A stretch of 64,000 nucleotides of DNA, taken from NCBI RefSeq assembly GCF_030028105.1, contig NC_092372.1:26912034-26976033 (forward strand). Direction: 5' to 3'. The notes under the pieces were generated by a model. That model worked only from the letters and a program-made list of their open reading frames with translations. It did no database searches and was not told the origin of the DNA. The position numbers and the translations under genes were made by a program. The stretch comes from Mobula birostris. Its lineage: Eukaryota. This document shows positions 3,532-64,000 of this stretch, piece after piece; the first letter of the stretch is position 1, and each line of letters begins with the position of its first letter.

Positions 3532-3783
3532 CTGTGATGAGACAAACAGCCTGTCAAGTTGACGTGGACAGAACCACAGTGAAGTATAGCAGTACAGATA
3601 TTTGAGACGGGGCAAGTAGTAGTGAATGAGGAAAAAGTCAGATACAGAAGGAAATAGACAAATTGACAAAAAAATTCCCAATGGGAAAGGCAGAGGTGTA
3701 CGTGAACACAAAGAGGCACAAAATCTGCAGATATAGACAGAAATAGAGAACACGAAAATGCAAATGTTTTATTTTAATCTCAC

Positions 3784-56674: not shown

Positions 56675-59590
56675 TGAGGGGGCATCCCTTTTGTGTGGCA
56701 CGTGAGGATTCCATGTGGATTGTCTGAAGATTCCTTATGTAGCTTTCTTGGTGCAGTTGTTCTGTTCTGTCAACAGTAAGGATGTCTATGTTCCTTGCAC
56801 CCAATCTGAAAGGCTGACTTTAGCTAAGGTATCACTGTTGTAGCAAAGTTTTATGAGCCTCCCCATATGAAGTCATCTACAGAACAGGCAAGTACTCAAA
56901 TCACATGACATCCTGAATCTTGCCAGTTAAAAAACAGCTGGATTCACTTGTGACATCTTTCCATCTGTTTTCAACATATTTCCTTGACCTTTTTATACGA
57001 GTAGAGCGATGCATCTGCTACACCATACATACACTTATTGAGCTTCCACAGTGTTCCTTCACTTCTGTCTTGTGACACCTCCATTCCCTGTAAGAATGTG
57101 AATTTTATGTCCATGCAGTGGGGTTGCCAATGCTTTTGACATATCACTGAGAGAAAGAGTCAGAGACTCTGATGCACATCTTGGTGAGTCTTTGAGTTCT
57201 TTTATGTTCAGTTCCTCAAAACCTCTGGCCACCAGGCATGCTTTTGGTGTAATTCCTCTTGGGGCCTCTTTCAAGGTGCACACTGATCTTGTAGACACTC
57301 TCTTTTGGTCAATCTCTGGCTTCCTCAAACACTCCATTATTCCTCCAACTTCTGATTTCGATCTGTTTTGCAGATTCAAATGACACCTCTTTAGTTACTA
57401 GGCCATCTTCATCTCGACATTTCTCAGATGGTCCAGCCTGATCTATACTTGATTCTATATGATGTCTGTCTACTCATGACATTTTGACTGGCCCTGCAGT
57501 GCCAGCGACTGTGATTGGTTCAAGGTAATTCAAGTTAAAACAACTTCTGTTTTTCCCAGTGGCTTTGCTTGCTCGTCCTAAGACTTCTGCTTTGTTTACA
57601 AATCTCACAGTTTGTCCTCTTTTAAGACTGAAACGTCCATGTTGTCTTTGCACTTATGATAATTTCTGTTCAGGCAAGTCTGAGTCTCCAGCTGCACTCT
57701 CTTCCATGCTGTCTGTGCCACTGCTGAACAGTTCTGTTGGGTCCTTAGCAGCACTCTCCTCATCCTTGTCTGTGCTATGTGACGCTGTACCGCCAAAGTG
57801 CTTTTCATTTTTGTTTTTATCATTCTCCATGGAGTTCTGATGGTCTTCAGTGTGTGCTTTACGTAGTCTGGAATGATGCACTCTCATGTATGTACCTCCA
57901 TGTCTCATGAATACAACTCCATCCAGACCAATGATAACTCCAGGACCTTTCCGTTCTGTACGGTCTGCCCTTTTGTAATACACTTTGTCCCCCGTCTCAT
58001 ATTTCTCATCTGCAGGACAGTGCCGTGCCCTCAGTGCTCTTTGAACTCCCTTTGGACACTCAGCTTCAGTGAAAGCCTTCGTTGATACATCCAGTACTGA
58101 ATTATGTTTCCCAACCCATTCACTCCTTGTAGGGCCCTCTAGAGGAGATTGTCTGTCAGCCAGTACAGAGGGAAGGTTTGGATTCTGGCTAAACACCAAT
58201 TGATATGGGCTATGGCAATGTACATTGCGCATGGTATTCTCCACAATAAGGACCCTGTCCAGAGCTGTGATCCAATCACAGCCATTGCTTTTCTTTACCT
58301 TCAGCGGTTTGATCGGGGCATGACTGTGCAAGTGCGTGGACGTCAGCCGGTGAGAAAAGTGAGAAGAGTTTAAAGGGAGATGATTATTTCTTCAGCGGTT
58401 TGATAGTGGTACGACTGCACAGTGAGAAGAGTTTAAAAGGACACACCTTATAAAACGGGCATCAGAGGAGCGAGCGACAGAGTAGAGGGAGACAGAGTAA
58501 GAAGGCTTTGGCTCAACAGGGCTTCAGCGGTAACGGGTTGAGCTGAGGTGGGTTGCCTGTGTAGAATACAGACAGGAAGAATGTGTGTGAGGCCGGTGTC
58601 CTGTGCTTGGTGTCAGGTGTGTCGAGCTGCAGCTCCTTAGGGACCGTGTTAGGGAACTGGAGATGCAGCTCGATGACCTGTTGTCTGGTCAGGAAAAGTG
58701 AGAAGGTGATAGGAGGGAGCTATAGGCAGGTAGTCACACGGGAGCCTGGGGAGACAGGTAAGTGGGTATCAGTCCGGAGAGGGAAAGGCAGGAGTCAGAG
58801 GCTAGAGTGCACCCCTGGGACTGTACCCCTTGACAATAAGTACTCCTGCTTGAGTACTGTTGGGGAGGACGGCCTACCTGGGGGAAGCAACAGTGGCTGC
58901 GCCTCTGGCACAGAGTCTGGCCCAGTGGCTCAGAAGGGTAGGGAAAGGATGAGGATGGCAGCAGTGATAGGGGACTCTATAGTTAGGGCGTCAGACAGGC
59001 GATTCTGATTGCATCCGTGCTATCCTGAAGTGGGAAGGAGAGCAGTCAGAGGTCGTGGTATATACTGGTACCAACAACATAGGCAGGAAAAGGGAAGAGG
59101 TCCTGAAAACAGACTACAGGGAGTTAGGAAGGAAGTTGAGAAGCAGGACCACAAAGGCAGTCATCTTGGGATAACTGCCTGTGCCACGTAACAGTGAGTA
59201 TGGGAATAGAGGGAGGTGGAGGATAAATGCGTGGCTGAGGAATTGGAGCAACAGGCAGGGATTCAGATTTCTTGATCATTGGGACCTGTACTGTATAGCC
59301 TACTGTATAATATGGGATGTAGCCTTAACAGTGCTCTCTGTACACGACTACAAACGACTGTTTTCTCACATACCTCTGAAACGAACTAAACTACTGTTAA
59401 AGACTTACACAGGACAGAAAGTGCGTCCCAAAGGTAAAATTAAAGTGACAGTGACCTACAGGGACAAAACACAACAGCTGAACCTCTGTGTACTGGAAAA
59501 TGGAGGACCACTGTTACTGGGTCGTGAATGGCTCAGGAAAATCCGGTTGGATTGGCACACCATCAAGGCACTAGATGTGTCAACAAAGGA

Positions 59591-59928
59591 GGGCAGCTTG
59601 GTGGGGAAGATGTCAGCAGCTCTCCTCTCACCCATTGTCGACTATTTCACCGACGAGGAGGAGCTAGACAGCGTTGGCAGGAAGACAGATATTGCCAATA
59701 AGCAGGATGATGAAGACTACCTGGAAGTAAAAGAGCAGATGTACCAGGAGAAATTGACATCTCTCAAAAGACAGCTACAGCAGTTACAGGAAGGCACTTT
59801 GCAGGAGTATCAGAAAAGGATGAAGAAACTAGATCAACAATGCAAGCAAGGAATATGAAATGCAGAGCTTTTTCTGCAACTGGAGACAGAAAAAGTAGAA
59901 AGGAATTATATTAGAGAGAAGAAAGAAG
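59591..59928 (+). pseudogene. SUDS3: Processed, partial SUDS3 (Sin3/HDAC corepressor SDS3) retrocopy
   Basis: ATG 59610: MSAALLSP...DEEELDSV...[45 protein letters not shown]...[23 protein letters not shown]; intronless; TGA at 59856-58; internal in-frame deletion; 3'-truncated. Confidence 0.9.
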
Positions 59929-60620
59929 CGGAGAGAGCGCAGGAATCCCCACTTCAGACCGGCCCGAGCTGCAACCACCTCACGCAGCCTGTCAACACCA
60001 GGAGCGAGGCCAAGACGGAGCAGCAACAGCCAGACAAACCCAAATCCCCCGGGGGAAGAAAGTCATCGCAACAAAGGTTCTTGGAACAGAAAAGTGGTTC
60101 AACGTACAAAATGGATATGGATTCATCAACAAGAATGATACAAAGGAAGATGTGTTTGTACATCAGACTGCTATAAAAAAGAATAACCCACGGAAATACC
60201 TCTGCAGTATTGGACATGGTGAAACTGTGGAGTTCGACGTAGTGGAAGGCGAAAAGGGTGCCGAAGCAGCAAACGTAACTGGTCCTGGAGGAGTTCCAGT
60301 CCGATATGCCGCGGACAGAAATCGTTATCGTCGCTGCAACCCTCGCCGCCGTAATTACCAACAGAACATTGAAGGTGGAGAGAAAGGAGATGGAGCAGAG
60401 ACAGCAACAGATGGAGAAATCTGAGATCAAAATCAGCAACATCGCCCTCCTTACAGAAGACAGTGTTATCCACCTTACTTTGTTCATCGTCGCTATGGTC
60501 GCCACCCACGATATAGCAACCAGCCTCGGAGAAATTACTGAGGGTGGTGAAATAATTGAAAACCAGGTTGCTGGGAAAGAAGGTAAACTTAACAGAGGAC
60601 AAAATCAATTCCATTCAAAC
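59929..60620 (+). pseudogene. YBX1: Processed, partial Y-box protein (YBX1-like) retrocopy
   Basis: [10 protein letters not shown], then cold-shock domain [95 protein letters not shown]; intronless; start codon apparently AGG; frameshifts and stops. Paralogue (YBX1 vs YBX3) not certain. Confidence 0.85.
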
Positions 60621-61394
60621 AGAACAGCTTTCGCGCAAGGTAAATCTTGAACCAATTTTTTTCCTCCATTGAGAATCATGCATTTAATCCTTTGCGAGAA
60701 AGTTTCTTTTGCATGTACATATTTTGGAATCCTCAGTCTATGTGTCTTGTTTTTCACAAAGAAACTGGGAAACAGCATCAAAACAGGCGAATTCTGGCAA
60801 CAAATTGTAAGGTTTCTGTGGTTGTACAGTATTTTTGCACTTGTGCTGACTGTGCATCTGAAGGAATTCTTCTTGAGCCAGACAGACAGCACTGCAGGTA
60901 ATCTTTAACATCAGCAAAACTGTACTTTAGCAGCAGCTTACAAAGATGGAACGAACAACAGGATATCAATCAACTGCTGCACTAAATGGTGAAAGATTAC
61001 TGGTAAAGTACTGATCTTTCTGTGAGTCATGGGATTGCCCAACTTTTGAATAACTAGTAGAGACAGCAGATCACCAACCGCTTCTTTTGTTGGTGGCAAG
61101 TCACGTTTGAAGCAGGCCATGGAAACTCCCTATGCTCAGAGGTCAACTTTTCATGGCTTTTATATGGAAATCTGTATTAAAACAAACAAGTTTATTGATA
61201 GACATTACCCAGGGGGGCAGAGAAGACCCCCCCCCCCACAAAAAGACTTGAGTTATAATTATTATTATTACATTGTTACAATTTCATATGATTAAGTTAC
61301 TAATTAAACAGTGGGTGGGCATTTGTATATTAAGGGTACAAGTACAGTAATTAGCGTAAAAAAAGTTGATATTTTTTAAATAAAAGGGGAGGAG

Positions 61395-61594
61395 TGTACC
61401 ATATAGCCTACTGTATAATAGGGACTATTTTATGTCGTCGTAACACGTTATTGAGCATGCGCTATTGGGTGCGTATTGATCTGTATATATGTGTTCAGTT
61501 CGGGTTCCGTAAGTAAAAAGCCCCTGTTAACTTAGCTCCAGTCTCCAGCGTTTTTATTAATGATATTGTTGTGTAAATGGCCACATACACAACA
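61395..61594 (+). repeat. 3' LTR of the Gypsy element (200 bp)
   Basis: TGT...ACA termini, preceded by the PPT, followed by the TSD; first ~26 bp match the 5' stub at 59287. Confidence 0.88.
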
Positions 61595-64000
61595 GGACCT
61601 GTTGGGGCAGGAGTAACCTGTACAAAAAGGACGAGTTGCACTTGAATCCCAGGGGGACTAATATCCTGGCGGGGAGGTTTTCTAAGGCTATTGGGGAGAG
61701 TTGAAATTAGGATTGCTGGGGGTTGGGAACCAAACTGAAGAGACGGAGGAAGAGGCGGTTGGCTCACAAATACAAAAAGATGGTAGACAGTGTGAGAGGG
61801 AGGATAGGCAGGTGATCGAGAAAGGATGTGCTCAGACCAATAGTTTGAGGTGTGTCTATTTTAATGCAAGGAGTATTATGAACAAAGCGGATGAGCTTAG
61901 AGCATGGATCAGTACTTGGAGCTATGATGTTGTGGCCCTTACAGAGACTTGGATGGCTCAGGGGCAGGAATGGTTACTTCAAGTGCCAGGCTTTAGATGT
62001 TTCAAAAAGGACAGGGAGGGAGGCAAAAGAGTTGGGGTGGGGCACTGTTCATCAGAGATCGTGTCACAGCTGCAGAAAAGGAACAAGACATGGAGGGATT
62101 GTCTATGGAGTCTCTGTGGGTGGAAGTTAGGAACAGGAAGGAGTCAATAACTCTACTGGGTGTTTTTTATAGACCACCTGATAGTAACAGGGACATCGAG
62201 GAGCAGATAGGGAGACAGATTCTGGAAAGGTGTAATAATAACAGGGTTGTTGTGCTGGGAAATTTTGGCATGTCCCTAGAGCGAGGGGTTTAAATGGGAT
62301 CGTGTTTGATAGGTGTGTTCAAGAACGTTTCCTGACACAATATGTAGATAAGCCTACAAGAGGAGATGCTGTACTTGATCTGGTATTGGGAAATAAACCT
62401 GGTCATTTTGGAGATAGTGATCACAATTCTGTCTCCTTTACCATAGCATTGGAGAGGGATAGGAATAGACAAGTTAGGAAGGGGTTTAATTGGAGTAAGG
62501 GGAAATATGAGGCAATCAGGCAAGAACTTGGAAGCATAAATTGGGAACAGATGATCTCAGGGAAATGTATGGAAGAAATGTGGCAGATGTTCAGGGGATA
62601 TTTGCGTGGAGATCTGTATATGTACATTCCAATGAGACAGAAAGGATGGTAGGTGCTGGGAAGTAGGTACAGAGGAGATGTCGGGGGGTAATTTTTTTTA
62701 CTCAGAGTGGTGAGTGCATGGAATGAGCTGCCGGCAATGGTGGTGGAGGCGGGTGCGATAGGGTCTTTGGAGATAGGTACATGGAGCTTAGAAAAATAGA
62801 GGGCTATGGATAACCCTAGTAATTTCTAAGGTAGGGATATGTTTGGCACAGCTTTGTGGGCTGAAGGGCCTGTATTGTGCTGTAGGTTTTCTATGTTTTT
62901 TGTTTCTATGGTACAGGAACTATGGTGTACAAAGGCTGTTGTAAATCTAGTCAAGAAGAAAAAAAGAGCGTATGAAAGGTTCAAAAAACTAGGTAATGAT
63001 AGGGGTCTAGAAGATTATCAGGCTAGCAGGAAGGAGCTTAAAGTCATTAGGAGAGCCAGAAGGGGCCATGAGAAGGCCTTGGCGGACAGGATTAAGGAAA
63101 ACCCCAAGCATTCTACAAGTATGTGAAGAGCAAGAGGATAAGGTGTGAGAGAATAGGACCAATCAAGTGTGACAGTGGAAAAGTGTGTATGGTACTGGAG
63201 GAGATAGCAGAGGTACTTAATGAGTACTTTGCTTCAGTATTCACTATGGAAACGGATCTTACAGCAGACTGAAAAGCTTAAGCATGTAGATATTAAGAAA
63301 GAGGATGTGCTGGAGCTTTTGGAAAGCATCAAGTTGGATAAGTCACCAGGACAGGATGAGATATACCTTGGGCTACTGTAGGAGGCAAGGCAAAAGATTG
63401 CTGAGCCTCTAGCAATGATCTTTGCATCATCAATGGGGATGAGAGAGGTTCCAGAAGATTGGAGGGTTGTGGATGTTGTTCCATTATTCAAGAAAGGGAG
63501 TAGAGATAGCCCAGGAAATTATAGACCAGTGAGTCTTATTTCAGTGGTTGGTAAGTTGATGGAGAAGATCCTGAGAGGCAGGATTTATGAACATTTGGAG
63601 AGGCATAATTTGATTAGGAGTAGTCAGCATGGCTTTGTGAAAGGCAGGTCATGCCTTACGAGCCGGATTGAATTTTTTGAGGATGTGACTAAATACATTG
63701 ATGAAGATAAAGCAGTAGATGTAGTGCAAATGGATTTTAGCAAGGCATTTGATAAGGTACCCCATACAAGGTTTATTGAGAAAGTAAGGAGGCATGGGAT
63801 CCAAGGGGACATTGCTTTGTGGATCCAGAACTGGTTTGCTCACAGAAGGCAAAGAGTGGTTGTAAACGGGTCATATTCTGCATGGAGGTCGGTGACCAAT
63901 GGTGTGCCTCAGGGATCTGTTCTTGGATCCCAGCTGTTTGTGATTTTTATAAATGACCTGGATGAGGAAGTGAAGGGATGGGTTAGTAAATTTGCTGATG

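Follow-up and report, generated by a model that had tools for sequence, protein, structure and literature searches.

What process could have brought pieces of several host genes, without introns, together inside one transposable element? The question is raised by a stretch of 64,000 nucleotides (nt) from Mobula birostris (contig NC_092372.1, positions 26,912,034 to 26,976,033; hereafter the window), in which a CR1 long interspersed nuclear element (LINE) is interrupted by a 2.3-kb insert. The insert is a 5'-deleted copy of a non-autonomous family of Gypsy elements with long terminal repeats (LTRs), and its cargo consists of complementary DNA (cDNA) pieces of SUDS3, YBX1 and, in antisense orientation, RNF213 (Table 1). 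An initial annotation, made from the sequence alone, had proposed that SUDS3 and YBX1 mRNAs were captured serially through template switching by reverse transcriptase (RT). Serial capture by a ray Gypsy element, with the cargo carried as a passenger, appears to be the best explanation as a whole, and we assign it a probability of about 0.8.

The parents of the cargo were sought with protein parts that are missing from or altered in the element, and intron-containing SUDS3 and YBX1 genes were found. The window exons of both genes match these parents at 84-100%, exon by exon, and the translated pieces were recognized as Pfam Sds3 (E 1.6e-5) and CSD (E 1.7e-22), respectively. Exon junctions are fused at four of five positions in SUDS3, the first falling inside a 57-nt deletion that is also present in other copies, and at six of six in YBX1, whose piece ends in exon 7. 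Neither gene piece has a target-site duplication (TSD) of its own and no poly(A) was seen at any cargo end, so that the two were correctly annotated as spliced, tailless host cDNAs. The window differs from the host at 18 of 377 aligned bases in SUDS3 and at 26 of 634 in YBX1, and it is broken in both sense cargos: SUDS3, with an ATG (59610) in frame with the protease, reaches a stop at 59856-59858, and YBX1 has AGG at the position of the start codon (60000) and a frameshift near 60050. Intron 7/8 of the SUDS3 parent (G000:C36:8205909-8208993) has the AT..AC ends of the minor class and was cleanly removed in the captured cDNA.

The initial annotation counted at least two captured genes, SUDS3 and YBX1, and missed the third, RNF213. 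The 530 nt of this piece in the window correspond to five exon blocks distributed over 13-15 kb in two RNF213 copies on G000:C28 (near 51.79-51.81 Mb and 52.08-52.09 Mb), with three of the four exon junctions fused and the missing one inside an internal deletion. A longer version of the piece, in copy L071, encodes a RING finger and matches solved RNF213 in a search of PDB (E 8e-18). The close RNF213 pair on C28 lies ~290 kb apart, either copy being a possible donor, and a more distant paralog is located near 44.30 Mb. Positions 60620-61195 had at first been taken for a retained YBX1 intron, a guess ruled out by the antisense RNF213 identity. No match was obtained by PDB search with window 60781-60969 or by Pfam on the plus-strand open reading frames (ORFs) of that region. 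The RNF213 piece is followed by 80 nt of the SUDS3 3' untranslated region (UTR).

The window insert is one of many copies. Each cargo piece gave 400-439 first-look candidates in the genome; for SUDS3 exon 6, the best 150 scored of 409 candidates comprised 149 non-host matches and one host exon, and all 20 fetched matches (of the 149) adjoin Gypsy sequence and carry a 24-nt deletion typical of the family. In full copies the cargo lies between gag-protease and the pol tail, where it takes the place of RT, RNase H and integrase; the whole is bounded by two LTRs, with a TGGCGACGAGG-like primer-binding word 3 nt past the 5' LTR and the purine tract before the 3' LTR, and the primer site is deleted in the window. 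The TGGCGACGAGG-like word presumably matches tRNA-Ser. Two direct LTRs were found in 17 cargo copies and in four pol-bearing copies, compared with one full LTR and a 31-nt stub in the window, and a TSD matching at 4-5 of 5 bases flanks 11 of the 17 and three of the four, respectively. The pol-bearing copies (L051-L054) share the window LTR and contain, in decayed form but arranged as in Gypsy, gag, protease, RT, RNase H and integrase; the domain order in L054 is zf-CCHC and protease (both weak), RVT_1, RT_RNaseH, Integrase_H2C2 and rve. The LTR thus belongs to Gypsy, and the suspected gene-carrying non-autonomous family exists in many copies (at least 149 with SUDS3 exon 6 and at least 29 with three genes).

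Several further features of the family were recorded. L052, L053 and L054 join position 2107 of L051 to position 3642, ~1.5 kb of other sequence being present there in L051, and no env was seen in the four pol-bearing copies. Kimura two-parameter (K2P) distances between paired LTRs were 0.075-0.151 in the cargo copies (median 0.103, n=17) and 0.058-0.091 in the four pol-bearing copies. Applying the epaulette-shark mutation rate of 7e-10 per generation (PMC10587355) gives an age of ~7e7 generations, which is not credible, and no age in years was assigned. Among the top LTR matches, L002, L012, L014, L019 and L026 are solo LTRs with 5-bp TSDs (4-5 of 5 matching). The 1.5 kb around each of 29 top LTR matches yielded no further identified cargo, the non-Gypsy stretches there staying unnamed.

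Three kinds of cargo copy were distinguished among 70 distinct loci, which were picked by search rank, so that the following are counts and not proportions: 15 copies with SUDS3 only (eight with a longer 3'UTR), 25 with SUDS3 and RNF213, and 29 with all three genes (window included), one locus being left untyped. A further 12 RNF213-bearing copies lie beyond these loci. Two of the three-gene copies, L070 and L157 (G000:C3:162.37 and 162.41 Mb), are ~38 kb apart and have common YBX1 interruptions; they probably arose by local duplication rather than by two insertions, and both are counted in the 29. The protease/SUDS3 junction is common to all copy types, as are several positions at which they differ from host SUDS3, and therefore SUDS3 was captured once. 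The longest SUDS3 captures end ~200 nt before the first AATAAA, with neither an A tail nor a TSD of their own. The RNF213 piece sits inside SUDS3, at exons 9-10. In copies free of YBX1, RNF213 extends 59 nt past the point at which YBX1 joins it in the window, and in L065 the RNF213/3'UTR deletion of the window is present and YBX1 is absent; together these states imply that YBX1 came last. The surviving intermediates would thus indicate the order SUDS3, RNF213, YBX1. An apparent regain of a 24-nt SUDS3 segment from host mRNA in L114 was rejected, since the deletion is present in this copy together with an unrelated 15-nt insertion.

At their boundaries the pieces share short words. These are GGGCAGC (7 nt) between protease and SUDS3, AGAGAAGAAAG (11 nt, 59915-59925) between SUDS3 and YBX1, GGACAAAATC (10 nt) between YBX1 and RNF213, CAGAC (5 nt, reading TAGAC in the window) between the SUDS3 3'UTR and the pol tail, and AAC (3 nt), at which a deletion joins RNF213 to the SUDS3 3'UTR. 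From 200,000 random position pairs, the chance rates for shared words of 7, 11, 10, 5 and 3 nt are 6e-4, <1e-5, 3e-5, 6e-3 and 0.06, respectively. When the junctions were compared with the genome in an ungapped test, J2-J5 were present in 22-27 of the 28 other three-gene loci and J1 in 14 of 28, many loci stopping short of J1 or being gapped there. As the cargo junctions recur at other loci, misassembly of the cargo is excluded.

The same recurrence bears on the idea that LINE-made retrocopies of SUDS3, YBX1 and RNF213 were inserted independently into one Gypsy copy, or that the locus is misassembled. LINE-type retrocopies do exist in this genome: a full-length YBX1 retrocopy with an A-rich tail and a 16-nt TSD, used as a control (L113:4231-5670, at G000:C1:52.294 Mb), starts within ~20 nt of the start of the YBX1 piece of the element. 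In addition, the CR1/stub/protease junction of the window locus itself was not bridged among the contigs listed. However, full copies with the same junctions differ in their flanks and TSDs, SUDS3 and YBX1 replace element sequence without tails or TSDs, and the chimera is present in proteins annotated from other ray assemblies. Independent SUDS3 and YBX1 retrocopies are refuted by the dispersed copies with LTRs, and we consider this explanation as a whole highly improbable. The dispersal of cargo copies with LTRs, different flanks and TSDs also agrees with the original proposal that the cargo was integrated as one unit.

Serial capture could have proceeded as follows. A ray Gypsy LTR element may have packaged SUDS3 mRNA, and its RT would have switched templates at short shared words, giving a product of the form LTR-gag-protease-SUDS3 cDNA-pol tail-LTR, in which the cDNA replaced RT, RNase H and integrase. 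This element would have kept its LTRs, primer site, purine tract and gag-protease, with RT and integrase supplied by pol-bearing relatives. In one lineage, SUDS3 would then have received ~1.1 kb of spliced RNF213 in reverse orientation, an event that most likely took place in a genomic copy. Internal deletions would have followed, and then a second switch would have added YBX1 mRNA in place of SUDS3 from codon 124 on and of the 59 nt at the start of the RNF213 piece; each stage would have multiplied anew. The window contains one copy of the last stage, which was inserted into a CR1 LINE, was shortened by ~1.4 kb at the 5' end and has decayed. Template switching, as initially annotated, fits SUDS3 and YBX1 with their microhomologies and nested order, but it may not cover RNF213.

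Switching of the minus strand onto an mRNA yields sense cargo, and a duplication combined with 3' pairing and antisense orientation is the product of target-primed insertion or RNA-templated repair. Antisense and without a tail, the RNF213 piece has at its beginning an exact match of 7 nt (13/16 nt) to SUDS3 exon 10 and at its end a match of 3 nt. A duplication of SUDS3 sequence flanks the piece; 10 nt of this duplication are seen directly in type B copies, and it would reach 22 nt if the longest ends of different subfamilies are combined, no sampled copy having both. It is therefore moderately likely that RNF213 was gained at the DNA level, by priming from a nicked genomic copy with LINE RT or through RNA-templated repair. 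Noll et al. 2015 (PMC5322556) provide a model for such a step in 3'-truncated tailless RNA copies with TSDs. Those cases concern L1 in therians and anole, and the RNF213 duplication is in part a reconstruction. According to the same authors, tailless LINE products are confined to these groups among the vertebrates they examined, which weighs against the DNA-level route.

The restriction would favour a capture of RNF213 within the particle instead, in which the growing plus strand or an antisense-RNA template copied RNF213 mRNA and then returned. This route would also be consistent with the tailless piece and its short matches at both ends, and with the failure to find a free RNF213 retrocopy: the 38 matches included one host exon, and 12 of 12 newly examined matches lie inside elements. 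On the other hand, the flanking SUDS3 duplication, the 3' pairing and the antisense orientation form the pattern of target-primed insertion or repair, and the fly cases of Tan et al. 2016 (PMC5131818), as far as described there, show replacement and never the interruption of a continuous element. Capture within the particle is a tentative second choice for this step, the geometry of the insert fitting the DNA-level route somewhat better. The ends of the insert coincide with exon boundaries, namely the last base of an RNF213 exon and the SUDS3 exon 9/10 boundary (L072:3817, L071:4889); a fly switch site near exon junctions was reported by Tan et al. (PMC5131818).

Whether the cargo was of use to the family was assessed from variants shared by five copies up to 90% of copies, which were compared with singletons after the exclusion of CpG transitions; variants in >90% of copies were left out because they are not assignable to element or reference. 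For gag-protease the ratio of nonsynonymous to synonymous variants was 42:43 among shared variants and 431:132 among singletons (P 7e-7). The corresponding ratios were 17:5 and 387:119 for SUDS3 (P 1.0, or 0.18 when variants in >90% of copies are included), 9:4 and 209:74 for YBX1 (P 0.75), and 22:6 and 304:87 for RNF213 (P 1.0). From these shared variants, gag-protease looks to have been under purifying constraint and the cargo looks neutral, and the cargo is probably a passenger.

A different role for the cargo would be a gag-protease-SUDS3 (later -YBX1) polyprotein that helped the family to spread, similar to a gag-onc fusion; the SUDS3 coiled coil could dampen Sin3-HDAC silencing, or the YBX1 cold-shock domain could help RNA packaging. 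The protease/SUDS3 and SUDS3/YBX1 joins are both in frame, copy L071 has an open protease-SUDS3 stretch of 345 amino acids, the shared SUDS3 deletions of 24, 57 and 201 nt (in 39, 15 and two copies) are all multiples of three, and there are hundreds of SUDS3-bearing copies. However, shared changes in SUDS3 and YBX1 alter amino acids no less often than neutral singletons do, by a test that does detect constraint in gag-protease, and the successful subfamilies cut SUDS3 at codon 123 or ~226-232. Deletions at microhomologies in coding DNA may also favour in-frame lengths. Moreover, YBX1 is very deep in two runs that are possibly RNA, and abundance alone can explain its capture. Use of the cargo therefore appears unlikely. 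An even less probable version is an in-frame Gag-protease-SUDS3-YBX1 polyprotein that aided spread, for which a vertebrate retrotransposon would have recruited first a Sin3-HDAC subunit and then an RNA chaperone, with antisense RNF213 able to make RNAs against an innate-immunity gene; if true, this would be a counter-defence carried by a transposon and built stepwise from host mRNAs.

Several observations do not sit easily with stepwise capture of a passenger cargo. In a tree of 54 copies, which is star-like, most three-gene copies group together but the types cannot be put in order, so that nesting is the basis for the order of capture. Copies with two genes and copies with three both include some with the 57-nt deletion, and there are two SUDS3 3' junctions, indicating that the copies also recombined and that a simple ladder is blurred; some SUDS3-only copies could in part be secondary losses. 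No clear TSD was found in six of the 17 two-LTR cargo copies, and two junctions share only 3 nt, which is at the level of chance (6%). The counts behind the neutrality of the cargo are small (5:3 and 5:0 at a stricter cut), recombination with pol-bearing helpers may have brought in the signal seen in gag-protease, and in-frame sense fusions and in-frame deletions are not required of a pure passenger.

In gag-onc transducing retroviruses, host mRNA is fused behind gag, as in the ray element, and replication depends on a helper, as is proposed for it. HERV-K/FAM8A1, in which a host mRNA was captured with microhomology as in the ray element, and the gag-onc cases are retroviruses, whereas the ray element is a Gypsy element with no env in its four pol-bearing copies and no sign of cargo selection (HERV-K/FAM8A1 via Tan et al., PMC5131818). 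Retroposition mediated by LTR elements is known, and the capture of multiple genes has been published for fly and mouse (Tan et al. 2016, PMC5131818). As with SUDS3 and YBX1 in the ray element, spliced partial mRNAs replace internal ORFs between two LTRs in these cases, with microsimilarity at the switch points (median 6 bp, compared with 7, 5, 11 and 10 nt here), neither poly(A) nor an own TSD, and further copying as non-autonomous units. Two-gene chimeras in fly and a four-gene 'Super' retrocopy in mouse were described. The fly data comprise 18 sites for nine retrocopies, compared with hundreds of copies and the intermediates of three captures in the ray family, in which one cargo is moreover antisense and interrupts another; the word 'shark' is absent from the main text of that study. 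Maize Bs1 (via the same authors) is likewise an LTR element with pieces of three unlinked host genes. Its chimeric protein is cited as possibly functional, whereas no constraint was detected on the ray cargo, whose copies number in the hundreds. Thus the mechanism itself is not new (PMC5131818), and what is new is how many copies there are, that the successive steps are preserved, and that one insert is antisense. The family amounts to a fossil series of gene capture, with a first capture, a second insertion, a third capture and renewed amplification in one genome, and the rates, frames and junction rules of LTR retroposition are thereby measurable on hundreds of copies.

For cartilaginous fishes, a recent preprint (bioRxiv 10.64898/2026.06.26.734816) counts SUDS3 as one of the five leading parents of retrocopies, and it relates the retrocopies of non-mammals to CR1/Tx1 LINEs as well as to selective filtering. 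In contrast, the ray SUDS3 copies examined here are Gypsy cargo, and the Gypsy family probably explains this rank in mechanical terms, whereas LINE activity and selective filtering are the context of the discussion in the preprint. Its main text mentions neither YBX1 nor RNF213, and no link of SUDS3 to LTR elements was noticed there. Two other genes that it names are not amplified in the present genome, the SLU7 matches being five exons from a single gene and those for the SDF2L1 MIR family comprising 18 exon-like matches. No description of the element was found in the literature, and none that joins YBX1, RNF213 and SUDS3, although a listing in a supplement or repeat library is still possible; SUDS3 is absent from the main text of the Mobula genome and red stingray preprints and of the VGP (Vertebrate Genomes Project) Phase I paper.

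Traces of the element are not limited to M. birostris, and its nearest named proteins belong to stingrays and devil rays. Database proteins of Hemitrygon akajei, Mobula hypostoma and M. birostris contain the SUDS3-YBX1 join, the RNF213-antisense tail, or both, and an 8-residue deletion motif was found in ten 'SDS3-like' proteins of two Mobula species and Hypanus sabinus. Seven proteins of Hemitrygon and Mobula annotated as 'Y-box-binding protein 1-like' (P0244, P0242, P0125, P0127, P0243, P0130 and P0241) are pieces of the element; P0244 consists of gag, the protease end, SUDS3, YBX1 and the RNF213-antisense tail, and P0125 is without the SUDS3 stretch covered by the 57-nt deletion of the window. 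Mobula is placed in another ray family than Hemitrygon and Hypanus, so the element spans both ray families, by descent or transfer. No such signature was seen among the shark, sawfish, electric-ray and chimaera proteins in the matches listed, which is weak evidence. A DNA run with a second organism label covers 30 of 30 bins of the window, and contigs of two runs guessed to be RNA, in which DNA may be included, cross cargo junctions at low depth. Copies of this kind can pass for extra host genes, so that gene-family counts in rays are likely inflated, and small RNAs could arise from the antisense RNF213 copies scattered over the genome.

The anatomy of the locus is summarized in Table 1. In public runs, CR1 copies that lack the insert (loose ends and joints) contain GGACC only once, and the GGACC pair at the edges of the insert is therefore a true TSD that splits CR1 ORF1, in line with the initial annotation. 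Its other structural assignments, from the LTR stub and protease remnant to the pol-tail codons, purine tract and 200-bp TG..CA LTR, were all upheld on inspection of the sequence. Since full members of the family have LTR, primer site and gag upstream of the protease, the short 5' end in the window reflects a local loss of ~1.4 kb.

Table 1. Features of the interrupted CR1 element and of the Gypsy-derived insert in the window.
Feature	Position	Strand	Basis or remark
CR1 LINE ORF1 5' part, GDSL/SGNH-like esterase region, frameshifted	58565..59286	+	ORFs; weak Pfam Lipase_GDSL_2, E 0.048; CR1 label in part assumed from the esterase we associate with CR1 ORF1
Left TSD GGACC	59282..59286	+	Single in empty CR1 copies
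5' LTR stub, 31 nt	59287..59317	+	93.5% to family LTRs; this copy has lost its remaining LTR, primer-binding site and gag
Gypsy aspartic protease, 3' part	59321..59597	+	87-90% to pol-bearing copies L051-L054; ends with GGGCAGC, 59591-59597
SUDS3 cDNA, 5'UTR end and exons 1-6	59591..59929	+	Parent G000:C36:8191418-8252277 minus
YBX1 cDNA, 5'UTR and exons 1-7	59913..60606	+	Parent G000:C32:3270931-3290896 minus
RNF213 cDNA piece, five exon blocks, antisense to the element	60597..61126	-	Parents on G000:C28; word shared with YBX1 at 60597-60606
SUDS3 3'UTR piece	61124..61203	+	96% to last exon of parent
Gypsy pol last codons and untranslated tail	61199..61381	+	Comparison with family copies
Polypurine tract	61382..61394	+	Similar tract before 3' LTR in family copies
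3' LTR, 200 bp, TG..CA	61395..61594	+	40 scored matches at 91-100%, best of 1325 first-look candidates in the 4.0-Gb genome
Right TSD GGACC	61595..61599	+	Sequence inspection
CR1 LINE resumes: ORF1 end, then decayed ORF2	61600..64000	+	Exo_endo_phos E 7.9e-5; RVT_1 E 7.9e-27

Upstream of CR1, a decayed Copia-type element was observed on the minus strand at 56970-58390 (RVT_2 E 2.7e-4, with an integrase-like ORF upstream of RT by eye). CR1 itself seems to have been inserted into this element, which would make three nested layers at the locus.

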